From assembly GCA_044225175.1 (NCBI GenBank), contig JBGAJA010000007.1, positions 13,492 through 77,491 of the forward strand: a stretch of DNA of 64,000 nt, given 5' to 3'. The stretch is from Candidatus Omnitrophota bacterium (GTDB lineage Bacteria; Omnitrophota; Gorgyraeia; Zapsychrales; Fredricksoniimonadaceae). Made by a program: the position numbers and the translations under genes. The notes beneath the pieces are model-generated. The model was not told the origin of the DNA and searched no databases. It was given only the letters and a program-made list of their open reading frames with translations. Below, piece after piece: positions 1 through 49,689 of this stretch (the stretch's first letter is position 1; the number at the start of each line of letters is the position of its first letter).

Positions 1-3000
1 CAATTTATTGTGGATACGGGCAATTCAGGATTATCCGTAGAGACGCAAAATTTTGCGTCTTTCCAAAATGAATCCCAAAGATTAATCAAATACTTCCTAG
101 CGGGCCTAACGATTCCAGAGGGAGATCTATGGGTGAATTTAAGCCCCTATGAGAAAGACAGAATCACGCCTACAGCCTTAGGAGAAACCGAGCTAGGACA
201 CGATTTGCTGGCGCAAGACTATATCTTAAAGCAGTTAACTGCATCGCTTATTTATCCAGAGAAAGACTTAGGTAAGGAGTTCTGGAGCCGGGTGTACCAA
301 CAGGCAAAAGAGAAGTTTGGGACAGCAAACGTGCCAGTTAACACCTTTAACAAAGTATGGATATTGCCGGATGAGGCCCAGGTATTTGAGAATAAAGGTG
401 CTGTGTATGTGACGAAATCGACGTTGAAGGTGATGTTGGATGAGGATTACCTGGCGATGAATAAACATAATGTAGGGGTGGGTTCCAAACCCACCCACAT
501 GAGGGCAGGCCTGCCTGATGTAGGGGTGGGTTCCAAACCCACCCACATGAGGGCAGGCCTGCCTGCCGGACAGGCAGGTTTAGAACCTGCCCCTACGGAT
601 TCAAATTATATCGGATCCAAAATCATCCGTGATATCGTCATTCCCGAAATCACCAAAGAAATTAATACGGGAAAGAATTTCGCACCTTTGCGTCAGATCT
701 ATAGTTCTCTTATCTTGGCTAAGTGGTACAAAGAAACCATCCAAAACGGCCTTTTAGACTCAATTTATACGAATAAGAGCAAGATATTAGGAATTAACCT
801 CTCAGACCCCGCTATGAAGCAAAAGATCTATGAACGCTACCTTCAGGCTTATAAGAAGGGGGTATTTAACTACATTAAGGAAGATGAAGCACCTACAGGG
901 CAAAAAACCCCAAGGAAGTATTTCTCAGGTGGGGCAGTTATAGATATTGATCTTAAAAGAACTAACAATAAAGGTATGATCAGTAGTGAAGGTTCGTTGC
1001 TAGCTTTGCAAGTGAGACTCAATTTGCCTAACGCTGCAATGACAGTCTTAGAAGAATTCATGGTATATCCCCAAAGGGCGATGAGTTTTGATGAGTTTGG
1101 GTTGGGATTGCTGGAGGAATTAGAGCAAGGTCATAGGGTACGCGTTCATGTCTTTGCGCCTCACACAATACAAGAATATATTTCTTGGCAGAAGGTTATG
1201 CCATTTGATACTCCTCAACAACGACTAGCCCATCAAATTGTATTAAATCTTTATAAACAACAAAAGATTAAAAGTATTCAGCTAAAAGCTGATGAGATTA
1301 TTTTAACTTTGAAAGAAAGGGTGATGATCAATGATAAGTCATTGGGTGAGATTCATTTGTATTGGCCAGATTCCCAGGAAATTGCAAGGCCGATCAAACA
1401 GAGATTTAAATCTGTCACGGAAATGGATTTGTTATTAGATTCTGAAAAGTTGACTGATTCTGATTTTATTGGTAAGAATTTCACATCACCTAACGCAGCA
1501 ATCCAAAAGTTATTAGCTTTGCTAGGGAATTTTTATGTCTTAGGGATTTATGATTATCAAGTCCAGACAGCGGAAGATCGAAGTGTACTTTTGCAGGAAT
1601 TAACGAACGATCAAGCAGAACGTGAAAAATATGCTCAACTGATTATTGCGGAAGAAGAATATGCTAAAGTAAAGCGTGATCTAGAATTAGCAGAAAAAGA
1701 AGTGCAACAAAAATTAGAACAACTAAGGTTGGTAGCAATAAAAGAAGCGGAAGAGCAAAGAAAAAGCCAAGAAAGACTTATTAAGCAAAGAGCTAGAGAA
1801 AAATTTGAGAAATATTTTAAAAAGATTTCACACTCTACGTATGTTGTTCCTTCCTTTTTGATTCCATTTTTTCAGAAAATGAAAGAAACAAGAGGTTCAA
1901 AATCCATTTATTTAGCATTGGAAGATTACGTGTCTGACGGGAGTATTGTTAGGATGTATCCTGATTTGCAAGGATTTAAAGTGGATTTTTATGATGGAGA
2001 ATTAAAGGATCCTAATGCCAAAGAGGTATTGATGGATTTGTTGGGTTCAATCAATCCTTTAAATGTGATTGATCAAGAGAATTTGTTAAAGAATCCAGAG
2101 AGTTTGTATGATTTCTTAATATCCGCAGCTTGGGAGGAAGAAACAAATGATTTAAGACTAAACGATAAAATTTATTATGATCAGTATGTCTTTGTGGGGC
2201 AGTATTTACATACTATATTTAAAAGAGACAGGGAAGAGATGATTAATAAGTTGTTAAATAGTTATAAAAGCACTGGGGATGAGTTGGATTTAGTAATGAA
2301 ATTATGGGGATTTCCTCATTTTATTCATTCGGAGGATATGGGAATATTTGATCAATTCTTTCAATCTGTATTAACAGAAACTAATATGATTAGTCTGGGT
2401 GGTTTTATTAAATATGCCGATAAGAGTGCGCCGCATAATATAAATATTTTAAAACTTTTAGGGGAGCGTTATCGGGGGTGGGTAGATGAAAGGTATATGA
2501 GTACCTTTTTGTGTATGGTCTTTATGGAACTTCCTAATCAGGTTATAAATCGATTTGAGCTAATGAAGCAAAGAGTTTTTGATTTGTTTTCTATAGAACT
2601 TAAAGTAAATATGGTGAATATTGAATATTACATTAGAGAACGGCAAATAAGAAATGAAAAGACAGTGATAAAATGGCTGGGAGGCGCTGAATCAAAATTA
2701 GAAGTCTTAATGGGGGGTGCTGTGGGAAGGCAGAAACGTCTTGCTGGCTCATCAAAATCTCTCAATCAAGCGATGATTGTGAAGAATAAAGAAGATTTTT
2801 CTACGGGTGCAGATTTAGCAATGGCTAATGAAGGTGGGGTCATTCAATTTGATAGTTTTGACCATTTTGAAGCGGCGGTTAAGAAGGGCGATTTGGATGC
2901 TAAAGCAAGGATTATAGTTGCAAGTTCGGCTGTTTTAGATGCTCTATTAATTGAATTAAGGGAAGCTTTTTCGGATGGAGTGGCTTTTAATATATTGATT

Positions 3001-4026
3001 AATGCGGTGGCCAAGCTTAAGGGTGAAGATCGAAAGGTATTTAAAGATGGGAAGTATGCTTGGGTAGAAGCATATTTTATTACAAAAGGTTTGTTGTCTA
3101 AAGGTCACCCCTCGCCTCTTCCTCGGGGAGGTATTAAGAGTGAGCTGCGTATAATCTTACAGGCCGCTATAGAAGGTTATTATAAAAGTTTGATTGATTT
3201 TAATGAGGCGCCTGAATTTCTTTTAGGTGATCACATTCCACCCTATATTCGGATATTCGGTTGGGCCAAGAGTATTTATACCTATACGCACAGCCCAAAG
3301 ATTAATAAACGGGTGTTTTCTACAAAGAAAGCAGCTACACAATACATAAAAGATTATATGATGAATCAAAAAATTACTGATGAGTCCTTGATTAGGGGAA
3401 TTATCAACATATTGAATCCTTGGAAATCTTTGAATAAGAAAGAAAAGTTATGGTTCTTTACAGAGCCAGAGTTAAAAATCAATCATACAGATAAAGAAAT
3501 TCTAATTGGGCTTATGGAAAAAGAAGTAAGAAAATATGATCCAAGGACCATCGCTAAAGCTTTAGAGATGGGAGATTCCTTGGAAAATCAAGCAGATAAA
3601 GAAGAGATATTAGGTATTATAAAGAATACGATCTTAGAAAAGTTAACGAGTGGTTTTTCTCAGTTCCAAGATGATAAGTTAGATCGAGTTATTGAAGAAA
3701 AAGCTAAGAAAGTTGGGGTGTTTCTACGATTAGAGAAGATTGAAAACGGATATAATCAGGATAGATTTGGTTTTAAATTAGTAGATATGGCTATGATGAA
3801 TAAGTCTCTTAATGCTCCTGGGGGTATTGATCTTAATCCAGTCCATATTCATCGTACGGGAAAAACAATTGCTGTTCAATTCGATCCTGCCCAACTCAAT
3901 GCGCTTATGCAAGGGGGTTTTGAAGGCTTTTCTCCTGTGATCATCAATATAAGACCTATTGAAAGCCCTTTACCATTGCTTGGAGTTGCCTCCCGCAGGG
4001 AAGAATCCGACTTGGCTAAGATCTGA
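1..4026 (+). CDS. Giant hypothetical protein, paralog A (5' end outside window; more than 1338 aa); conserved N- and C-terminal domains shared with the ORF at 45091..49689; central KE-rich coiled-coil
   Basis: Reading frame is open from nt 1, and the ORF track starts at 10 with no upstream stop. Residues 26-300 align with residues ~105-380 of the 45091 ORF (LIKYFLA[GS]LTIPEGDLWVNLSPYEK..., ...RYLQA[YF]KKGV[FY]NYIK). The C-terminal ~70 aa are also shared (GGID...F.PVIINI.P). Confidence 0.8.
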   Translation, partial: QFIVDTGNSGLSVETQNFASFQNESQRLIKYFLAGLTIPEGDLWVNLSPYEKDRITPTALGETELGHDLLAQDYILKQLTASLIYPEKDLGKEFWSRVYQQAKEKFGTANVPVNTFNKVWILPDEAQVFENKGAVYVTKSTLKVMLDEDYLAMNKHNVGVGSKPTHMRAGLPDVGVGSKPTHMRAGLPAGQAGLEPAPTDSNYIGSKIIRDIVIPEITKEINTGKNFAPLRQIYSSLILAKWYKETIQNGLLDSIYTNKSKILGINLSDPAMKQKIYERYLQAYKKGVFNYIKEDEAPTGQKTPRKYFSGGAVIDIDLKRTNNKGMISSEGSLLALQVRLNLPNAAMTVLEEFMVYPQRAMSFDEFGLGLLEELEQGHRVRVHVFAPHTIQEYISWQKVMPFDTPQQRLAHQIVLNLYKQQKIKSIQLKADEIILTLKERVMINDKSLGEIHLYWPDSQEIARPIKQRFKSVTEMDLLLDSEKLTDSDFIGKNFTSPNAAIQKLLALLGNFYVLGIYDYQVQTAEDRSVLLQELTNDQAEREKYAQLIIAEEEYAKVKRDLELAEKEVQQKLEQLRLVAIKEAEEQRKSQERLIKQRAREKFEKYFKKISHSTYVVPSFLIPFFQKMKETRGSKSIYLALEDYVSDGSIVRMYPDLQGFKVDFYDGELKDPNAKEVLMDLLGSINPLNVIDQENLLKNPESLYDFLISAAWEEETNDLRLNDKIYYDQYVFVGQYLHTIFKRDREEMINKLLNSYKSTGDELDLVMKLWGFPHFIHSEDMGIFDQFFQSVLTETNMISLGGFIKYADKSAPHNINILKLLGERYRGWVDERYMSTFLCMVFMELPNQVINRFELMKQRVFDLFSIELKVNMVNIEYYIRERQIRNEKTVIKWLGGAESKLEVLMGGAVGRQKRLAGSSKSLNQAMIVKNKEDFSTGADLAMANEGGVIQFDSFDHFEAAVKKGDLDAKARIIVASSAVLDALLIELREAFSDGVAFNILINAVAKLKGEDRKVFKDGKYAWVEAYFITKGLLSKGHPSPLPRGGIKSELRIILQAAIEGYYKSLIDFNEAPEFLLGDHIPPYIRIFGWAKSIYTYTHSPKINKRVFSTKKAATQYIKDYMMNQKITDESLIRGIINILNPWKSLNKKEKLWFFTEPELKINHTDKEILIGLMEKEVRKYDPRTIAKALEMGDSLENQADKEEILGIIKNTILEKLTSGFSQFQDDKLDRVIEEKAKKVGVFLRLEKIENGYNQDRFGFKLVDMAMMNKSLNAPGGIDLNPVHIHRTGKTIAVQFDPAQLNALMQGGFEGFSPVIINIRPIESPLPLLGVASRREESDLAKI
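472..596. mobile_element. In-frame palindromic (MITE/RPE-like) element inside giant gene A; GTAGGGG...CCCCTAC termini, two perfect hairpins, internal 48-nt tandem duplication (472..519, 520..567)
   Basis: GGGTGGGTT-cca-AACCCACCC gives a 9-bp perfect stem. GGCAGGCCTGCC is a palindrome. The unit gtaggggtgggttccaaacccacccacatgagggcaggcctgcctg occurs twice in tandem. The outer termini gtagggg / cccctac are inverted. It encodes NVGVGSKPTHMRAGLPDVGVGSKPTHMRAGLP... Confidence 0.55.
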
Positions 4027-4138: not shown

Positions 4139-5692
4139 ATGAGTACTACAACAACACCAAAATCAGTTATGGAGGAGCTCTACGAGAGCACCTTAAAAGA
4201 TATAAAGGAAGGAGAAATCATCAAGGGCACAGTTGCCGCGGTGAATGCGAAAGAAGTTATCGTCGACATCGGGTTTAAATCTGAAGGATTTGTGCCTATT
4301 GAAGAGTTTCGCAACTTAGCAGATTTTGCCGTAGGTAGTCAAATCGAAGTTCTCATTGAGAACATTGAAGATGATAACGGTCGCTTAATCCTTTCTTACG
4401 GAAAAGCTGAACGCCTCAAAGGTTGGCAGAAAATTTCCGATGATATTAACGAAGGCGATATTGTTGACGGTCGCGTTGTTCGCGCAGTCAAAGGTGGATA
4501 TATCGTCGATGTATTTGGCATTGAAGCATTCCTACCAATGTCACTTTCCGCATTTAAAGGCATTTCCAACAACGATATTACAGTTAAGAATTTCAAATTC
4601 GTCGTAGCTAAAATGAATAAGCAAAGACGCAATTTGATTCTTTCACGCCGTGAGATGGTTCAAAAAGAACGCGAAGAAGTTCGTGAAAAGCTTTGGGGCG
4701 ATCTTAAAAAAGGTCAAAAACGCAAAGGAACTGTTAAGGGTATTACAGATTTCGGTGCGTTTATTGATTTAGGCGGGGTTGATGGTCTTCTTCATATCAC
4801 AGATATGAGCTGGAGCCGTATCAATCATCCTTCTGAAATTGTATCTGTTGGGCAAAAGATCGAAGTGTTGATCCTTGATTTCGATCAAGCCAACGCTAAG
4901 GTGTCTTTAGGTCTTAAGCAAATTGTAGCTAATCCTTGGGATGAAGCTGCTGCCAAGTTCCCTGCTGGAGCTAGAATTAAGGGAAAGATTGTTAATATTA
5001 TGCCATATGGTGTGTTTGTTGAAATCGATCGTGGCATTGAAGGTTTATTACACGCTTCTGAGATTTCTTGGCAAAAGAAGATTGTTAATCCTCAAGAAAT
5101 GTTCAAATTAGGCGATGTTCTTGATGTTCAGATCATCAACGTGGATAAAGATGCAAAACGTATCTCCTTAAGTATGAAACAGTTAGAAGAAAATCCTTGG
5201 GGGAATGCAGCTGCTAAGTTCAATGTTGGCGATAAGATCAAGGGTGTTGTTCGTGGATTTACCGATTATGGAGCTTTCATTGAATTAGAAAGCGGGTTAG
5301 AAGGTATGATCCATGTTTCTGATATGTCTTGGACCAAAAAAGTCAATCATCCTCAAGAAGTTCTTCAAAAAGGACAATCTTTGGATGTGGTTGTTCAGGC
5401 AGTGGATGCTGAGAATCGTAAGATTACTTTAGGTCTTAAGCAATTAGAATCTAATCCTTGGAATGAAATTGCTCAGAAGTTTCCAGTTGGTTCTGAAGTA
5501 GCCTCCGAAGTTGTGATGAACTCAAACTTTGGTGTGTTTGTTAAATTAGAAGGTGATATCGAAGCTTTGGTATACTCCTCTGAAATTGATAAACAACAAG
5601 CTGCGTCATTGAAACCAGGTGATAAGCTTCAAGTTAAGATTATTAAAGTTGACGTCGAAGGCATGAAAATCGGCGTTTCAGCTAAATTGTAA
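4139..5692 (+). CDS. rpsA: 30S ribosomal protein S1
   Basis: 517 aa with repeated S1 domains (GDIVDGRVV..., GQKRKGTVKGITDFGAFIDLG..., HASEISW..., HVSDMSW...). Confidence 0.85.
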   Translation: MSTTTTPKSVMEELYESTLKDIKEGEIIKGTVAAVNAKEVIVDIGFKSEGFVPIEEFRNLADFAVGSQIEVLIENIEDDNGRLILSYGKAERLKGWQKISDDINEGDIVDGRVVRAVKGGYIVDVFGIEAFLPMSLSAFKGISNNDITVKNFKFVVAKMNKQRRNLILSRREMVQKEREEVREKLWGDLKKGQKRKGTVKGITDFGAFIDLGGVDGLLHITDMSWSRINHPSEIVSVGQKIEVLILDFDQANAKVSLGLKQIVANPWDEAAAKFPAGARIKGKIVNIMPYGVFVEIDRGIEGLLHASEISWQKKIVNPQEMFKLGDVLDVQIINVDKDAKRISLSMKQLEENPWGNAAAKFNVGDKIKGVVRGFTDYGAFIELESGLEGMIHVSDMSWTKKVNHPQEVLQKGQSLDVVVQAVDAENRKITLGLKQLESNPWNEIAQKFPVGSEVASEVVMNSNFGVFVKLEGDIEALVYSSEIDKQQAASLKPGDKLQVKIIKVDVEGMKIGVSAKL

Positions 5693-39701: not shown

Positions 39702-40781
39702 ATGGCACACAAAGTTACACTCTTACCAGGTGATGGAATCGGACCCGAAGTAACCAATGCAATGAAGTTATGCGTGGAAGCAACAGGTGTCAAAATTGAT
39801 TGGGATGTTCAAGAAGTTGGTGAGAAATCCATGGCTAAACATGGTAAACCTTTAACAGATGAGGTTTTAGATTCTATTCGTCGCAATAAAACTGCAATCA
39901 AAGGGCCAATAACGACTCCAATTGGAAAAGGTTTCAGATCTGTGAATGTTCAATTGCGTCAATCATTGGATCTTTTTGCCTGCGTTCGTCCTTGCGTGTA
40001 CTATGAAGGTACTAAGACTCCAATTAAAAATGTAAATTTGCTGATCTTTCGTGAAAACACCGAAGATCTTTATGCTGGAGTTGAATTTGATATCAACACT
40101 CCAGAAGTGGACCGTCTACGTAATCTTATTAACGAAATGTCTGCTAAGAAGGTTAAGGAAGACACAGCAATTTCAATTAAACCAATTTCAGTGAGTGGTT
40201 CTAAGAGAATTGCTAAGTTTGCTTTTGATTGGGCTGTTAAGGCAGGGCGTAAGAAGATGACAGCTGTTCATAAGGCCAACATCATGAAGTTCTCCGACGG
40301 TCTTTTCCTTAAGAGTGTTTCAGAAGTAGCAGAACAATATAAAGGTAAGATCGAATTTGGTGATTGTATTGTGGATAATATGTGCATGCAGTTGGTGCAA
40401 TATACTTCTTTGTATGATTGCTTAGTGCTTCCTAATCTTTATGGAGATATTGTCTCCGACTTATGTGCTGGTTTGGTTGGAGGCTTAGGTGTTGCGCCAG
40501 GGGCTAACTATGGTGACGAGATTGCTTTATTTGAGCCTGTGCATGGATCCGCTCCTAAATATGCAGGACAAAATAAGGTTAATCCTACGGCAACCATTCT
40601 TTCAGCCGTATGGATGCTTCGCCATTTAAAAGAAGATGATGCAGCTAATCGTCTCGATAATGCAGTGAAGATTATTTTAAGGGAAGGTAAGGAAGTTACT
40701 TACGATCTTAAAGATAATAAAAATGATCCATCTGCCATTGGTACAATGCAAATGGCTGAGGCGATTTGTAGAAAGATCTAA
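39702..40781 (+). CDS. Isocitrate/3-isopropylmalate dehydrogenase family protein
   Basis: [28 protein letters not shown]. Confidence 0.8.
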
Positions 40782-40807: not shown

Positions 40808-40837
40808 AACCCCCTCTTTAATCAAAGAGGGGGTTTC
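40808..40837 (+). terminator. Rho-independent terminator
   Basis: ccccctcttt-aatc-aaagaggggg then tttc. Confidence 0.7.
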
Positions 40838-40851
40838 TATTAGGAACTCAG

Positions 40852-41490
40852 ATGGACTTGCTTATTGAAGATTGGGGTATAATTGACTACGAGAGTGCTT
40901 TTGTGCGTCAAAAAGAACTCGTTCAAGCTGTCATTGGGGGAGCCCAGGGCCGTTTGATTTTTTGTGAACACCCTCCGGTGCTTACCTTGGGGCGTTTATT
41001 TAAAGAAAACAGCCTTCTATACACCCATGAAGAAATTCAAGCCAAAGGAGTAAGTATTAAATCCATTGACCGTGGGGGGGATGTTACGCTTCATGCGCCG
41101 GGACAATTAGTTGTTTATGTGATTCTAGACTTGAACGTTTTGGGTAAAGATTTAAAGGTTTATCTCGAGAAACTCGAACAAGTTGCCGTTGATTTATTGA
41201 AGGATTTTGGTATATTGGCTGTAAGTATTCCGGGAAAACGTGGTGTTTTCGTCAAGCGAGATAAGATTATTTCAATCGGCATTGGAGTTCGCAAATGGGT
41301 CAGTTATCATGGCCTAGGCATTAATGTAAATACAGATCTTTCTTTATTCTCTTTAATCAAGCCCTGTGGTTTAGATGTGAACATGACCTCTCTCTCAAAA
41401 CTACTGGGGCGCTCAGTTGACATGTCAAAAGTAAAAAATAAATGGATTGAGCATTTTAATCGAGTTTTTAAGGTTAATAGTCGCATATGA
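40852..41490 (+). CDS. lipB: Octanoyltransferase (lipoyl(octanoyl) transferase) LipB
   Basis: BPL/LPL catalytic domain motifs (GGDVTLHAPGQLVVY, RKWVSYHGLGINV). Confidence 0.8.
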   Translation: MDLLIEDWGIIDYESAFVRQKELVQAVIGGAQGRLIFCEHPPVLTLGRLFKENSLLYTHEEIQAKGVSIKSIDRGGDVTLHAPGQLVVYVILDLNVLGKDLKVYLEKLEQVAVDLLKDFGILAVSIPGKRGVFVKRDKIISIGIGVRKWVSYHGLGINVNTDLSLFSLIKPCGLDVNMTSLSKLLGRSVDMSKVKNKWIEHFNRVFKVNSRI

Positions 41491-45090: not shown

Positions 45091-48000
45091 ATGCTAAGAA
45101 CCCCATTGATCACAATTATTTTAGTGAGCTTTATCGTCACAGGAACTATAGGCCCTATGCCTGTGAATGCTCAGGAAATACGTTTGCCTAAGCCTGGGGT
45201 AATGGTCCATTTAAGTCCCCCTATAAATCCTTCCATGTTAAAGGGAATTAAAGTTAATCCAGATAATCCGTTTCGGTTTGAATTCGTGCTGGACACCGGT
45301 GATGAAAATGTCAACCGTAGGGGTTTGATTCATCAAACCCAAGCAGAGGGCATGATGAATCATGCCCCTACGGATTTCAAATCTGAATCCGTGAAATTAA
45401 TCAAATATTTCCTAGCCTCATTAACTATACCGGAGGGTGACCTATGGGTAAACCTAAGCCCCTATGAAAAGAACCGTATGGTTCCTGAGAGCTTTGGGCA
45501 GACAGAGATGGGACGTGATCTACTAGCCCAGGACTATATGCTCAAACAGATCACCGCGAGTCTTATCTATCCAGAAGATGAGGTAGGAAAAAGATTCTGG
45601 AAGAGGATCTATGAGGAGTCAGCCAAGAAATATGGCACAACCAATATCCCAGTCAACACATTCAACAAGGTCTGGATAGTTCCTGAGAAGGCAGTTATTT
45701 ATGAGAATGCAAAGGCAGGAACGGCCTATGTGGTGGAATCCAGGTTGAAGGTGATGTTGGAATGTGATTATTTGGCGATGGATAAAAATATCGTAGGGGC
45801 GACCCACCGTGGTCGCCCTTTACCAGGGCAGGCACAGGGGCCTGCCCCTACGGAAACAAATAACATCGGATCCCAAATCATCCGCGAAATCGTCATCTCC
45901 GAATTAACCAAAGAGATTAACTATGGCGCGAACTTCGCCCAGCTTAGACAAGTCTATAGTTCCTTGATTCTAGCCACATGGTACAAAAAGAAGATCAAAG
46001 ATTCGATTCTTTCCCAAGTCTATGCAGATAAAAACAAGATTGAAGGAATCAAATACGCAATGCCAACCAGGGGACATGCTCTTAACCAAAACAACAAGAG
46101 CGTGTCCCCAAGCAGTTTGCTAAGCAATAAAGCCTTGGATGTGAAAGCGACCCAGATGAACGAACCAAACGATGTTGAATCTATCTACCAACGCTACCTG
46201 CAAGCCTTCAAAAAAGGCGTCTACAACTACATCAAACAAGACATTGACCCGGCGACACAACAGGCTGTGCCCAGGAAATATTTCTCTGGCGGTATGGCTT
46301 TAGCCATGAATGTCACTAATTTAGGATCAACAGAATTACGAACAGTCGATAGGATGGATTTTGCTCAAATAAACCAAGATAACTTGAGAATTATCTCCAG
46401 TGAATTTACTTCTGTTAATTCAGTCTTGTCTAATCAGGCGATGAAGGCAGGAGAATCAAGTGCTGTGTCCCCAGATCCCCTGAAAACTCCTGCGCGGTCT
46501 TCATTTGTGATCGAAGATTCTCCTGATTTCAAACAGCGGTATTTGGGTGCTGCGAATAATCATGATCGAATAGCTTTATTAAAAGAAGAGTATGGATTAA
46601 GGGATGTTGAAATCGAAGTTTCAAGCATTAGGGGGGGATTTGGAGTCACTAGGGGTACTGGTTTATTGCAGAAAGCGGGTGACCATAAATATACATTAAC
46701 TTTATATGGGGTTGAGGGTGATTATGAGGCTTATTTATTATTTCATGAATTTATGCATGCATATTTTGAAGAAAAAGGTCTTCGATTTAATTGGGACTCT
46801 CAAGGTGCGGAAGCAGATAATTTTATTTTTCAAATAAAGAATATGCTTTTGGATTATATGATCGAGCAGGAGAATAAGCGCAGATTTGAAGATCAATTTC
46901 AAGACATCACTCAAGATATGCGTGACTATAATTTAAGAGGTGTTTTAAAGGATAGAGCCATATTTCCTTCTTCCTTAATTGTCTTAGCTTTGAACGGAAA
47001 ATTAGTCACAAATCTTTATCCAGCTCTATCAGCATGTTATTCGCAGTCTTTTATTGGCAAAATTGTAAAAATCCCTTATTACGATGAGCTGGTAAAAGAA
47101 TTTGATAAACTGTCAGTTTCAAGTTCTGTTTCTGATTGGCAAAATGGATTTATGAATGTTTACAAAATAATGGTTGATTCTGATGTGAAGATGCAAGCTA
47201 ATAAGTTAGTAGTGAATATTCAGAAATTGAAAAAAGTGATAATGAATATAAATGGTAATTTAGAAATGCTTATTCAAACGGTCCAACGGACAATGGCCGA
47301 ACAAATAAAGCCTGAACAACAAACCATGCCCGATCAGATATGGGATGCTTTAGTATCAGAATTAGACAACTCCAAATGGCCGGATGATTTTAGAATCATA
47401 TTAAAATATCATCTGGACGCTCAGAAAAGAAAACTAAATGTTAAAAGTCTTTTTGATACTTTGCGTAAATTTCATATCGGGCCTACCGTAAACATCATAT
47501 ACATGTTAAATGGCATCTTTGAGAATGCGAATTTGAGCGTGAGAATTTATAATGATGAGCAGAGGAAGATTCAAAAAGTTAATGATGATTATGGTTTCTT
47601 AGAGAATCTAGATTTTGCAATGCTTGAGACAATAGAGGGCAGCGCCCAATTATTTAAGAAATCTGATCAAGCAATGAAGGCAGAAGAATTAAGTGCTGTG
47701 TCCCCAGATTTGCAGAATATATTTGGTAAACCCGTGAATGAAGATTTACCTGAAGAGATTGCTAATTTACCAGCAGATCAGTCTTCTACACGAGGGACTT
47801 TAACCAAGAGGCCATTCGGTGAGAAGACTATTGAACAAGAAAGGTTAGAATTAGAAATGTTGGTGGGTGTTGAATCTCTTGAACCGCAGGTTGCATGGGC
47901 TGTGCAAATGTTAACGATTAAGGGGTATGGTAGTAAATCTTCAGGGTTTTATTATGAGCATCCTAGTCAAATTCACGGTGGCACTATGGAGAGACACAGT

Positions 48001-49689
48001 ATTGAAGGTTTTTCAAGATCATTGTCTCCGGAAGAAATAAGGATTATTGAATCTGTCCCTGGGGCTAAATATGATGTCTCTAAAAATGGAATATTTGTTG
48101 ATTCTAAAGGTAAAACACTAAAAGAAGTCAAAGCTGTTTTTGATGAAATTGCTAGAAGACTTCCTGATCATGGAGCGCAAAATAGAGAGCAATTTTTGAT
48201 GTTTCAACAGGTGTTGGGTGCTCCAAATCGGCATTTTATAATAAAAATAAACGCAACTGATGGGTATCAGGATAGAGAGATATATGTCAACCGATTTGTA
48301 CGTCATTTAAAGAAGTTTAAACTCACAATGACAACAGATGTTATTTCATTATGGGAGACTATTATTGGTCAGCAAGAAGGTGCATCGCAAATCGAAGTTG
48401 TTCAAGGTGTATTTAAGGACGCAATTGTTAATGGAAAAGCATTGGTGATTGCGGGAGATAGTCTTAAGAGATTTGATTTTTCAATTCAAGACTTAATTAA
48501 ATCAGTACTTAGTCAGCAAGGAGAGACAGTAGCATTTAACCATGAAACTTTAAAGGTGCATCCTGGATTTCGTTTGGTATTTCTACTAGATGACTCTTTA
48601 GCTAAGAAGTTAATGGAAGAGCTAGAAAGAAGCTTTCTTCAATTTAACTATCCTGTAACCTCTCAGAAAGTGGACAGTGCTTTGCCTGCCGAACATAGAA
48701 ATGGAACAGATAATCTAGTCTTAGAATTTGAAAGAGAGCTTACTGAAGCATGGAGAGCGATCCCATTATTTTACGATACGGAGTTTACAGACAATCAACC
48801 ATGGATTATGGATCATAGAACGTTGTGGGATGATGTATTAAAAGTAGCATCTAAGCATCAGTTATTAGCTCATGGCACATTGAATAGTTATTATCAATCC
48901 AATGGCATTGGGATTTCACCTCTTAATCTTCACTGGGCCATGTTGGGTATTATGCTTGAAGGTAGTGTTCGTTTTGGTGAATTGGGAAATTTCTCTTCCA
49001 ATATTGGAATAGATGATATGTACAAAAATGCTGCTCGTTTTGGCCCCTACTATGTTCTTTTTCGTCCAGGTAGTGGAGTTCCAGGTGAAAAACAATTTAA
49101 GTTTCGAGAACATCCTTCTAAAGAAGAGGATCATTTAATCTATCTTGTACCAGAAGAGAACGCACGGAAATTCTTTGAATTGGGTCTGATTAAAGCAAAG
49201 GAGCGAGGTTTTATTACTCCTGCGCAAGAACAGATAGTTCGTTCTAAGATTTTAACGTATGCTGAATTTGTAGCGAGTGACAGTCAGATAGAGGACATAA
49301 TTAGAGGAAGAGTTCCAGCGCGACGGACGGGAAATGACGCTCAGACAGCAAAGGACACGGATAGAGTGATGAAGACAGAAGAATTAAGTGCTGTGTCCCC
49401 AGATTATAAACATATTGCTTTGGGGACGGTTGTACCTCCGGGAGATGCTGCAATGAGGGTAGGAAAGGCTTTGACGAATAAAGGTGGTATCGACTTTACC
49501 GCCACCAAAACACCTTTGGAAGTTCATAACGCAGGAGAGGGTATAAAGTTCCAGCTGGATCCAGCTATGTTGCAGCAGCTCCAAAATGCCCCAGGCTTTG
49601 TGCCAGTCATTATTAATATTGAACCCATGATCAATCTGCGGGAATTTTTGGGTATTAATCAGCAACAAACTACCTCTATTTCTGCATAA
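45091..49689 (+). CDS. Giant hypothetical secreted protein, paralog B (1532 aa): signal peptide, shared N-terminal ~300-aa domain, three modules delimited by an identical repeat, HExxH motif, shared C-terminal ~70-aa domain
   Basis: N-terminus MLRTPLITIILVSFIVTGTIGPMPVNAQE looks like a Sec signal peptide; homology to the 1..4026 ORF at both ends; HEFMH at 46744..46758. Confidence 0.85.
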   Translation: MLRTPLITIILVSFIVTGTIGPMPVNAQEIRLPKPGVMVHLSPPINPSMLKGIKVNPDNPFRFEFVLDTGDENVNRRGLIHQTQAEGMMNHAPTDFKSESVKLIKYFLASLTIPEGDLWVNLSPYEKNRMVPESFGQTEMGRDLLAQDYMLKQITASLIYPEDEVGKRFWKRIYEESAKKYGTTNIPVNTFNKVWIVPEKAVIYENAKAGTAYVVESRLKVMLECDYLAMDKNIVGATHRGRPLPGQAQGPAPTETNNIGSQIIREIVISELTKEINYGANFAQLRQVYSSLILATWYKKKIKDSILSQVYADKNKIEGIKYAMPTRGHALNQNNKSVSPSSLLSNKALDVKATQMNEPNDVESIYQRYLQAFKKGVYNYIKQDIDPATQQAVPRKYFSGGMALAMNVTNLGSTELRTVDRMDFAQINQDNLRIISSEFTSVNSVLSNQAMKAGESSAVSPDPLKTPARSSFVIEDSPDFKQRYLGAANNHDRIALLKEEYGLRDVEIEVSSIRGGFGVTRGTGLLQKAGDHKYTLTLYGVEGDYEAYLLFHEFMHAYFEEKGLRFNWDSQGAEADNFIFQIKNMLLDYMIEQENKRRFEDQFQDITQDMRDYNLRGVLKDRAIFPSSLIVLALNGKLVTNLYPALSACYSQSFIGKIVKIPYYDELVKEFDKLSVSSSVSDWQNGFMNVYKIMVDSDVKMQANKLVVNIQKLKKVIMNINGNLEMLIQTVQRTMAEQIKPEQQTMPDQIWDALVSELDNSKWPDDFRIILKYHLDAQKRKLNVKSLFDTLRKFHIGPTVNIIYMLNGIFENANLSVRIYNDEQRKIQKVNDDYGFLENLDFAMLETIEGSAQLFKKSDQAMKAEELSAVSPDLQNIFGKPVNEDLPEEIANLPADQSSTRGTLTKRPFGEKTIEQERLELEMLVGVESLEPQVAWAVQMLTIKGYGSKSSGFYYEHPSQIHGGTMERHSIEGFSRSLSPEEIRIIESVPGAKYDVSKNGIFVDSKGKTLKEVKAVFDEIARRLPDHGAQNREQFLMFQQVLGAPNRHFIIKINATDGYQDREIYVNRFVRHLKKFKLTMTTDVISLWETIIGQQEGASQIEVVQGVFKDAIVNGKALVIAGDSLKRFDFSIQDLIKSVLSQQGETVAFNHETLKVHPGFRLVFLLDDSLAKKLMEELERSFLQFNYPVTSQKVDSALPAEHRNGTDNLVLEFERELTEAWRAIPLFYDTEFTDNQPWIMDHRTLWDDVLKVASKHQLLAHGTLNSYYQSNGIGISPLNLHWAMLGIMLEGSVRFGELGNFSSNIGIDDMYKNAARFGPYYVLFRPGSGVPGEKQFKFREHPSKEEDHLIYLVPEENARKFFELGLIKAKERGFITPAQEQIVRSKILTYAEFVASDSQIEDIIRGRVPARRTGNDAQTAKDTDRVMKTEELSAVSPDYKHIALGTVVPPGDAAMRVGKALTNKGGIDFTATKTPLEVHNAGEGIKFQLDPAMLQQLQNAPGFVPVIINIEPMINLREFLGINQQQTTSISA
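45317..45371. mobile_element. In-frame palindromic element, copy B1, in giant gene B (GTAGGGG...CCCCTAC with two perfect hairpins)
   Basis: gggtttga-ttca-tcaaaccc and gggcatgat-ga-atcatgccc are flanked by gtagggg / cccctac, then ggatttcaaat. Confidence 0.5.
45793..45851. mobile_element. In-frame palindromic element, copy B2, in giant gene B at the position homologous to 472..596 in gene A
   Basis: gtaggggcgacc-cac-cgtggtcgccc, ...gggcaggcacaggggcctgcccctac; termini GTAGGGGC / GCCCCTAC. Confidence 0.5.
46441..46475 (+). repeat. Intragenic repeat copy 1 (encodes MKAGESSAVSPD)
   Basis: atgaaggcaggagaatcaagtgctgtgtccccagat. Confidence 0.8.
47674..47708 (+). repeat. Intragenic repeat copy 2 (encodes MKAEELSAVSPD)
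   Basis: atgaaggcagaagaattaagtgctgtgtccccagat. Confidence 0.8.
49369..49403 (+). repeat. Intragenic repeat copy 3 (encodes MKTEELSAVSPD)
   Basis: atgaagacagaagaattaagtgctgtgtccccagat. Confidence 0.8.

Follow-up and report, generated by a model that had tools for sequence, protein, structure and literature searches.

The window analysed here, a 64,000-nucleotide stretch of contig JBGAJA010000007.1 from a Candidatus Omnitrophota bacterium, contains two large genes, A and B, whose open reading frames (ORFs) carry short palindromic elements. The initial annotation of this DNA had described three of them, A1, B1 and B2, as segments bounded by GTAGGGG and CCCCTAC with two perfect hairpins each; its coordinates were right and the stems measure 8-9 bp. 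It had also mentioned a 20-nt palindrome at 41-60 in gene A, which is real, occupies the site homologous to that of B1 and is preceded by GTAG at 37-40. Judged by their anatomy, A1, B1 and B2 can be assigned as head-to-head heterodimers of GTAG-tagged repetitive extragenic palindromic sequences (REPs), and the 37-60 element as a single GTAG REP, because the tag, the stems, the short loops and the head-to-head dimers of different stems fit the definition of this class in the survey of Di Nocera, De Gregorio & Rocco 2013 (BMC Genomics 14:522, PMC3733652). All four elements are translated inside intact ORFs, as had been proposed. The genes and the elements assigned in this way are located as follows.

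1..4026, + strand: gene A, defined as an ORF with its translation; large protein with the 5′ end cut by the window, the N-terminal domain hosting elements.
37..60, + strand: single GTAG REP in loop site 1 of gene A; GTAG (37-40) followed by the 10-bp perfect palindrome AGACGCAAAATTTTGCGTCT.
472..596, + strand: A1, GTAG REP head-to-head dimer in loop site 2 of gene A (amino acids 158-199).
470..565, + strand: perfect 2 x 48-nt tandem duplication in A1 (Tandem Repeats Finder, TRF: period 48, 2.0 copies, 100% match).
558..578, + strand: extra internal hairpin CCTGCCTGCC-gga-CAGGCAGG, interrupting the right REP of A1.
45091..49689, + strand: gene B, 1532 amino acids; signal-peptide-like N-terminus, conserved N-terminal domain, variable middle, shared C-terminal motif.
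45316..45372, + strand: B1, 57-nt insert in loop site 1 of gene B (amino acids 76-94), GTAG REP head-to-head heterodimer (GTAG..CTAC 45317..45371).
45793..45852, + strand: B2, 60-nt insert in loop site 2 of gene B (amino acids 235-254), GTAG REP head-to-head heterodimer (GTAG..CTAC to 45851).

Genes A and B have in common an N-terminal domain (N-domain) of ~400 amino acids with 49% identity. More than 1400 protein matches to this domain were obtained, and the homologues with names belong to Candidatus Omnitrophica/Omnitrophota. No significant Pfam match was obtained with the gene A and gene B proteins, and Foldseek found no fold in the PDB that matches the AlphaFold 2 model of the gene B N-domain (best E 0.24). 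Over residues 1-420 of gene B, the predicted local distance difference test score (pLDDT) of this model averages 60. Segments below 50 include residues 74-92, 233-253 and 316-359, which correspond to B1, to B2 and to a third insert, B3 (amino acids 324-357). Each insert is flanked by confident helices or strands in the model. The insert sites of gene B are thereby predicted to be permissive, low-confidence loops between secondary-structure elements. GTAG REPs of the window fill two of the three N-domain loops; the third is filled by B3, which is unrelated to them and is described below. A1 and B2 share loop site 2, while B1 and the 37-60 element share loop site 1.

A1, B1 and B2 share the layout of REPIN/BIME-like doublets: GTAG, a GGG-stem-loop-stem-CCC unit, a spacer of 6-7 nt, a second GGG-stem-loop-stem-CCC unit and CTAC, with perfect 8-9-bp stems. 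All seven REP units of the window begin with GTAG; their perfect stems are 8-10 bp long and their loops 0-6 nt, depending on which central bases are counted as paired. That the hairpins differ while the architecture is conserved, as noted initially, is explained by different REP sub-families. The heptamer GTAGGGG is found 12 times on both strands of the window as compared to 2.4 ± 1.4 times in dinucleotide shuffles (none of 100 reaching 12). Of these copies, seven lie within A1, B1 and B2, and the remaining five are solitary and hairpin-free. The G+C content of A1 (0.63), B1 (0.51) and B2 (0.72) exceeds that of the window (0.38) and of the host domains (0.44). Strong folding was borne out by comparison with shuffles, z ranging from -4.2 to -9.4 for the three dimers (-8.1 for A1, -9.4 for B1, -4.2 and -6.1 for the + and - strands of B2) and reaching -5.5 for the 37-60 element. 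B1 can form one long, REPIN-like hairpin (z about -9, -35.6 to -40 kcal/mol), because its left half is related to the reverse complement of its right half. B1 and B2 fold both ways, as two separate hairpins or as one large stem-loop.

The GTAG..CTAC spans of 55, 59 and 125 nt are not divisible by three; frame-neutral inserts are obtained as CGTAG..CTACG for B1 (57 nt) and GTAG..CTACG for B2 (60 nt). The GTAG elements of the window encode Gly/Pro/Ala-rich loop extensions of 8-42 residues (VG.G...APT), with peptides such as VGVGSKPTHMR and GLIHQTQAEGMMNHAPTDFK. In the APT(D/E) signature reported initially, APT belongs to the element, being GCC-CCT-ACG, that is CCCCTAC in one frame, but D/E are host codons. 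The GGAT(T)TCAAAT-like sequence noted at that stage after each element likewise consists of host codons; Asp is also found at empty sites, and the two flanks are read in different frames. The sequences flanking A1, B1 and B2 are cataat and ggattc, tcaacc and ggattt, and aatatc and ggaaac, respectively. No target-site duplication was found in them, as expected for HUH/Y1 elements and unlike MITEs (miniature transposable elements with inverted repeats).

The 37-60 element is read as VETQNFAS and has lost its 3′ CTAC. The same peptide was found again in the homologous proteins P0112 and P0086, and the 5′ flank GGATTATCC and the GTAGAGACGC.. type recur at site 1 in three of the loci fetched for comparison (L155, L175, L177). 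A1 is composed of a left REP, GTAG-GGGTGGGTT-CCA-AACCCACCC, and a right REP, GGGCAGG..TT-TAG-AACCTGCCC-CTAC, and is present in unduplicated form at site 2 of L143, L201, L202, L203 and L065. The 48-nt perfect tandem duplication seen initially in A1 was recovered by TRF at 470-565; it takes in the left REP and the spacer as well as the first part of the right REP. The hairpin at 558-578 is missing from the homologous dimers compared (L201, L203, L143) and looks like a local inverted duplication. In B1, the hairpins are GGGTTTGA-ttca-TCAAACCC and GGGCATGA-tgaa-TCATGCCC, the left one recurring as an inverted copy with a compensatory pair change at site 2 of family locus L153. Those of B2, GGGCGACC-caccgt-GGTCGCCC and GGGCAGGC-acaggg-GCCTGCCC, are each also seen as a GTAG-tagged REP in other phyla (loci L091, L023, L043). 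Overall, close relatives of five of the six window hairpins were found in other fetched loci, several of them of other phyla, and they are GTAG-tagged where the tag is visible. The right hairpin of B1 had no close relative among the fetched loci.

The DNA of loop sites 1 and 2 was extracted from 80 metagenomic loci encoding the N-domain (with the window, 1.07 Mb). Of the 76 unique loops at site 1, 36 are at base length (<=51 nt) and 40 are longer; of the 71 at site 2, 36 are at base length (<=66 nt) and 35 are longer. Base-state loops have a G+C content of ~0.40, are mostly without hairpin and typically encode KGDSQLSNDxLKDESxK at site 1 and ..KHEGIQSKQAQTKDTNQL at site 2. The signature of a palindromic family is carried by 32 of the 40 longer loops at site 1 and by 30 of the 35 at site 2. 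Seven such families were distinguished: the GTAG type; GTCATTCCCGC..GCGGGAATCC; GTCATTGCGAG..; GTCATCCTGAG..; CCCCCTCTTT..AAAGAGGGGG; ATCCCCGA..TCGGGGAT; and a ~100-nt GGGGACA..TGTCCCC element. At least seven repeat families including GTAG REPs thus fill about half of all loop copies. GTAG head-to-head dimers are also present in L014, L032, L086, L109, L130, L153 and L165. The element types are scattered over a rough neighbour-joining tree of the N-domain, which was used qualitatively, its quality being insufficient for counting independent gains. The nearest relative of gene B, L126, has the same dimer architecture with different hairpins at site 2.

Translation runs into the GTAG elements in two frames (VG.. 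or RRG..) and out of them in different frames (APT or PLQ); the third entry frame would place a TAG stop. Because both the GTAG elements and the ~100-nt element are read in several frames, the inserted unit is DNA and not peptide. All homologues with the A1 peptide (L143, L201, L202, L203, L065) retain the palindromic DNA, and the A1-type dimer of L202 carries fully compensatory pair changes relative to the other copies. The comparison suggested initially, a search for homologues having the same linker without the palindrome, gave none: those that share the linker keep the palindrome, and about half of the homologues have no insert.

GTAG units with perfect stems were then counted per strand in the 1.07 Mb of family-bearing contigs, with the following result.

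In the two annotated loops (11.6 kb): 34 GTAG units.
Elsewhere in family genes (loops missed by anchors, or site 3): 9 GTAG units.
In intergenic DNA or ORF ends: 12 GTAG units.
Deep inside non-family ORFs: 0 GTAG units.

In the same DNA, 31 of 225 GTAGGG copies and 18 of 168 GTAGAG copies are directly followed by a perfect hairpin of >=7 bp, as compared to 0-1 of 124-593 copies for ten control hexamers.

The search for additional copies proposed in the initial annotation returned many, intergenic in Omnitrophota contigs and spread over many phyla. The pattern GTAGGGGYRGGTTNNNAACCYRCCC was searched in species-representative genomes (596 Gb, ~1 chance match estimated) and matched at least 120 loci. 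Among the matches listed are Chloroflexota, Thermodesulfobacteriota, Binatia, Nitrospirota, Planctomycetota, Patescibacteria, Pseudomonadota and Omnitrophota. Most frequent among them is the perfect 29-nt palindrome GTAGGGGCGGGTTTSAAACCCGCCCCTAC; half forms and dimers with a different second hairpin also occur. About 115 of the 143 elements in the matches listed are intergenic or at ORF ends, and in an Omnitrophota contig GTAG hairpins lie between genes of a housekeeping cluster. As stop-to-stop ORF classification over-calls interior matches in high-GC genomes, the 28 cases of this kind were judged by eye. About eight are really in frame: six elements in three genes resembling REP-associated tyrosine transposases (RAYTs) and one element each in two further ORFs (L043, L051). 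The 80 record titles among the matches listed are all metagenome-assembled genomes. Contigs with the 29-nt palindrome often bear further shared hairpin families, seen as VIPAKAGIQ, MDSRLRGND and SFPRRREP (e.g. L020). Across phyla, the copies of this palindrome resemble one another closely. In L054 and L020, where GTAG elements recur with identical flanks, no enclosed transposase was found, the genes between them being ordinary ones.

A crude regular expression for the RAYT Y...NP motif found nothing and was replaced by tblastn with E. coli RayT, then with its matches as queries. RAYT-like ORFs were detected beside or around GTAG REPs in L025, L072, L090, L091 and L100, loci that had been chosen solely for the palindrome, and a sixth in L175, a contig of the Omnitrophota family. 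Pfam Y1_Tnp matches five of the six (L072 being outside the scan), with 30.4, 28.5 and 23.3 bits as compared to a cut-off of 23, and two fragments just below it. In L175, the RAYT-like ORF ends in a stop codon directly followed by a GTAGAGACGCC.. REP (GTAGAGACGCCATTTATGGCGTCT unit), and the contig's own family gene carries this REP type in frame at site 1.

In-frame GTAG REPs were also observed in the RAYT-like genes themselves (L025 4448-4909; L072 ~5065-5676; L090 338-1138; L091 3-479; L100 100-750, minus strand), from loci that bear different lineage labels (where noted, Gemmatimonadales and Anaerolineaceae). In at least four of these five genes the REP insert stands just after the HUH motif, e.g. 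..VVMPNHVHGIVLIVDDL[VGAGSEPAPT]MAMV..., and L090 has a second dimer upstream. With a repeat lodged in the gene for its own putative transposase, the two could spread more readily as a unit. No mention of a REP embedded in a RAYT gene was found in the literature examined.

Overall, we consider it very likely that non-autonomous GTAG REP/REPIN-like DNA has been inserted or copied into permissive, disordered loops of the N-domain, and kept there. A RAYT-type HUH/Y1 transposase whose gene lies elsewhere in the genome would mobilise the REPs in the form of single-stranded hairpins, and these REPs would reach the length-variable loops by insertion or by being copied between paralogues through recombination. 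Survival would be restricted to copies that leave the ORF in frame and are not read in the TAG frame; such copies would therefore be translated as Gly/Pro/Ala-rich loop extensions. The tandem and internal inverted duplications of A1 and the loss of CTAC at 37-60 would reflect reshaping after insertion. Both the mobilisation by a RAYT in this organism and the neutrality of the inserts for the host are presumed here. REP types are found outside the family and next to RAYT-like genes, and therefore an external source pool exists.

Several observations weigh against this interpretation. The density of GTAG units is ~2.9/kb in the loops and ~0.2/kb in intergenic DNA plus ORF ends, a ~15-fold difference for which passive tolerance alone is not an obvious predictor; the intergenic share of the family contigs is only ~6% by a crude ORF partition. 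The GTAG elements of the window are confined to genes A and B, with none in its intergenic regions. By tblastn, no RAYT-like gene was found in the 64-kb window, and one partial copy only in ~1 Mb of family contigs. The three dimers of the window are all different and intragenic, unlike classical REPINs. Classical REPIN populations consist of many near-identical extragenic copies per genome with a dominant master sequence. Recombination between paralogues could explain the same data, and we know of no direct demonstration of transposition of any REP for this family. The excess in the loops may stem from relaxed constraint in a compact genome, from paralogue recombination or from insertion near existing hairpins.

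The alternative that bears on the route of spread, and not on the identity of the elements, is that their spread was due mainly to gene conversion or recombination among paralogues, or to insertion targeted at hairpins, and not to fresh transposition into each gene, the loops being hot spots since an existing palindrome attracts or seeds others. This is possible, though we lean against it. It would account for the ~15-fold loop density and the absence from other genes, for identical REPs with their flanks shared by paralogues whose other site differs (L155 as compared to L175 and L177, gene A sharing the GGATTATCC flank), and for stacked or nested elements in one loop (L127, L161, L141, L185). 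Several family genes can lie on one contig (the window, L161, L187, L198), and REPs within palindromic targets have been reported (PMC3733652). However, element types are scattered on the domain tree and nearest relatives differ in their hairpins, as gene B and L126 do, and the same REP types exist outside the family and beside RAYT-like genes. A related idea, more tentative and in our view rather unlikely, is that the three disordered loops of the N-domain are privileged landing pads for palindromic repeats, either through a targeting preference for existing hairpins or single-stranded DNA or through the host diversifying exposed loops. In the second variant, REP turnover could diversify exposed loops of a secreted, cargo-carrying family; the Omnitrophota lineage has been reported as host-dependent or predatory.

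The remaining explanations concern the nature of the palindromes. The initial annotation had offered two interpretations, of which in-frame insertion resembling Rickettsia palindromic elements (RPEs) stood and a selected mRNA or DNA structure did not. Hairpins selected at N-domain linkers, for ribosome pausing during co-translational folding or secretion or for stabilisation of a long mRNA, would agree with the very strong folding (z -4 to -9), with compensatory pair changes between homologous stems (L202 as compared to the window, L153 as compared to B1), with a loop density above the intergenic one and with the argument that many REPs act as RNA hairpins (PMC3733652). We nevertheless judge this improbable: each site lacks a hairpin in half of the homologues, the same loops are occupied by at least seven unrelated palindrome families, sometimes stacked or nested, the same hairpins are intergenic in many phyla, and the same DNA is read in different frames. 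Mismatches are G-U pairs on the sense strand in L143 and on the antisense strand only in L126, which gives no strand-specific signal. Template switching during replication (snap-back synthesis), creating the palindromes de novo loop by loop, fits the recent perfect tandem and the internal inverted duplication of A1. It is plausible only for such secondary rearrangements and otherwise very improbable, since the GTAG(G)GG/CC(C)CTAC tags are conserved in all copies and linked to RAYT-like genes, and unrelated phyla contain close relatives of the A1 and B2 hairpin cores. Selection of a Gly/Pro-rich linker peptide, the palindromic DNA being a by-product of amino-acid repeat constraints, finds some appeal in Gly/Pro/Ala-rich peptides resembling flexible linkers in predicted disordered loops. 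This last explanation is hardly credible. Perfect 8-9-bp stems are kept while the peptides differ, one DNA gives unrelated peptides in two or three frames (VGAG..APT, RRG.. and ..PLQ; MPTRGH.. and RQPGDM..), identical DNA stands at non-coding positions, and the retention of the palindrome in all homologues with the A1 peptide had already contradicted it.

Two further palindromic repeats of the window belong to other families.

46062..46161, + strand: B3, ~100-nt in-frame insert of an unrelated palindromic family in the third loop of gene B.
40808..40835, no strand assigned: hairpin AACCCCCTCTTT-aatc-AAAGAGGGGGTT (in full AACCCCCTCTTTAATCAAAGAGGGGGTT), between ORFs 39702-40781 and 40852-41490.

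The three elements listed initially are thus all real, but B3 had been overlooked. It follows the pattern GCCAACCAGGGGACATG..GTGTCCCCAAGC..GAAAGC.CCCAG (also given with the end GAAAGCACCCCAGGGAAAC) and folds with a 14-bp stem (z = -4.2). In homologues, elements of this type occupy each of sites 1, 2 and 3, and every one of the three reading frames is represented; copies are also present in L122, L124, L130, L149, L152, L173, L164 and L181. Eleven of the 12 copies seen lie inside family genes, and the B3 type may be specific to this protein family, unlike GTAG REPs. The 40808-40835 hairpin is a member of the CCCCCTCTTT..AAAGAGGGGG family, which is in frame in loops of L141, L160, L172 and L198. 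No other palindromic repeat of these families was found in the window outside genes A and B.

Further observations were made on the host family and on the window. In homologues (P0001-P0120), the C-terminal parts fused to the N-domain include a methyltransferase, a HAD hydrolase, a protein kinase, HEAT repeats and a sugar transferase. These varied fusions suggest that the N-domain is a common delivery or anchoring module with variable cargo. The middle regions of genes A and B are unrelated; a C-terminal motif of ~75 amino acids is common to both (3784-4008 in gene A, 49444-49677 in gene B; 39% identity, E 1e-12), with the pattern ..GGID(L/F)....FDPA.L..L....GF.PVIINI.P.., and may be a common sorting or anchoring signal. 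Gene B also contains three copies of a 55-nt direct repeat (46423-46477, 47656-47710, 49351-49405; 78-84% identical) that encodes ..AMKAEELSAVSPD.. at apparent module boundaries and could be a recurring linker or processing site. In L203 (138-1028, 1006-2604), family protein P0098 ends at 296 amino acids and the next called gene overlaps its end; this family gene may be frameshifted or split just after the N-domain. On a contig labelled 'uncultured Planctomycetales', L065 (3814-4905) encodes a family N-domain 62% identical to that of gene B with an A1-type REP dimer at site 2; either the family extends beyond Omnitrophota or the bin is mislabelled. All 48 ORFs of >=150 amino acids in the window are on the + strand, a strand bias unusually complete for 64 kb. 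An Rfam scan of the whole window gave three tRNAs and nothing else.

These results extend in-frame insertion of the REP/RPE type to Omnitrophota, a phylum known almost solely from metagenomes. The GC-rich 'linker' peptides of the family are repeat DNA and not conserved protein features, which bears on annotation, alignment and domain definition. Hundreds of paralogous loops, empty or variously filled, offer a data set for the gain, loss and tolerance of selfish DNA in proteins, and the similar 29-nt GTAG palindromes across phyla, together with the copies inside RAYT-like genes, provide leads on the spread of REPs and transposases. By full-text search, the exact palindromes and their typical peptides were found in no paper, nor was a report of such elements in Omnitrophota; preprints on Omnitrophota giant proteins make no mention of palindromes, hairpins or RAYTs.

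The elements of the window are closest to the GTAG REPs surveyed in PMC3733652. These have a GTAG tag, 6-13-bp stems and short loops, form head-to-head dimers and heterodimers with the GTAG ends outside, are mostly intergenic and are linked to RAYT genes; their sub-families differ by complementary stem changes. The survey also describes intragenic in-frame REPs, mostly dimers encoding 20-30 amino acids and sometimes two per ORF, the GTAG type being most numerous in Opitutus terrae and the CGTC type of R. conorii corresponding to RPE-4/-6. Here too we find the tag, a GC-rich short stem-loop, head-to-head heterodimers, in-frame dimers, mostly intergenic copies in related DNA and a link to RAYT-like genes. 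In contrast, the host phylum, Omnitrophota, lies outside those that the survey covers, and the spacers are 6-7 nt instead of mostly 20-100 nt, although 1-5 nt also occurs there. The insertions concern three loops of one multi-copy family, whereas those of the survey are scattered with a bias to DNA-repair genes. The GTAGGGG(C/T).GGTT core is assigned here at the level of the super-family, which comprises 24 GTAG families in the survey.

Like REPINs (Bertels & Rainey 2011, PLoS Genet 7:e1002132; Nunvar et al. 2010, BMC Genomics 11:44), the dimers consist of two inverted REPs with a short spacer, can form one long hairpin (B1) and have no coding capacity of their own; as in REPIN/RAYT systems, a Y1/HUH RAYT-type gene is flanked by the same repeats, here in related loci. 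MITEs such as Nezha, Correia/NEMIS and ERIC originate from DDE insertion sequences and have 15-30-bp terminal inverted repeats and target-site duplications (review PMC10969869). They resemble the present elements in being small non-autonomous repeats with inverted ends, co-transcribed and occasionally in frame, but a MITE identity is contradicted by the missing target-site duplications at A1, B1 and B2 and by ends made of a 4-nt tag plus a hairpin. As with Rickettsia RPEs (Ogata et al. 2000, Science; cited in PMC3733652 and PMC1779305), in-frame palindromes in open genes are translated as surface or loop peptides at permissive positions, here indicated by intact ORFs, low-confidence loops in the AlphaFold 2 model and empty sites in homologues. 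The likeness to RPEs is functional; judged by the tag, GTAG here and CGTC in RPE-4/-6, and by the host, the families differ. The length of RPE-1 is ~100-150 bp. RPEs reside in many unrelated housekeeping genes of another host lineage, as opposed to fixed loops of one family. In-frame insertion of the REP/RPE type is already known; the strong preference for one protein family is the unusual part.

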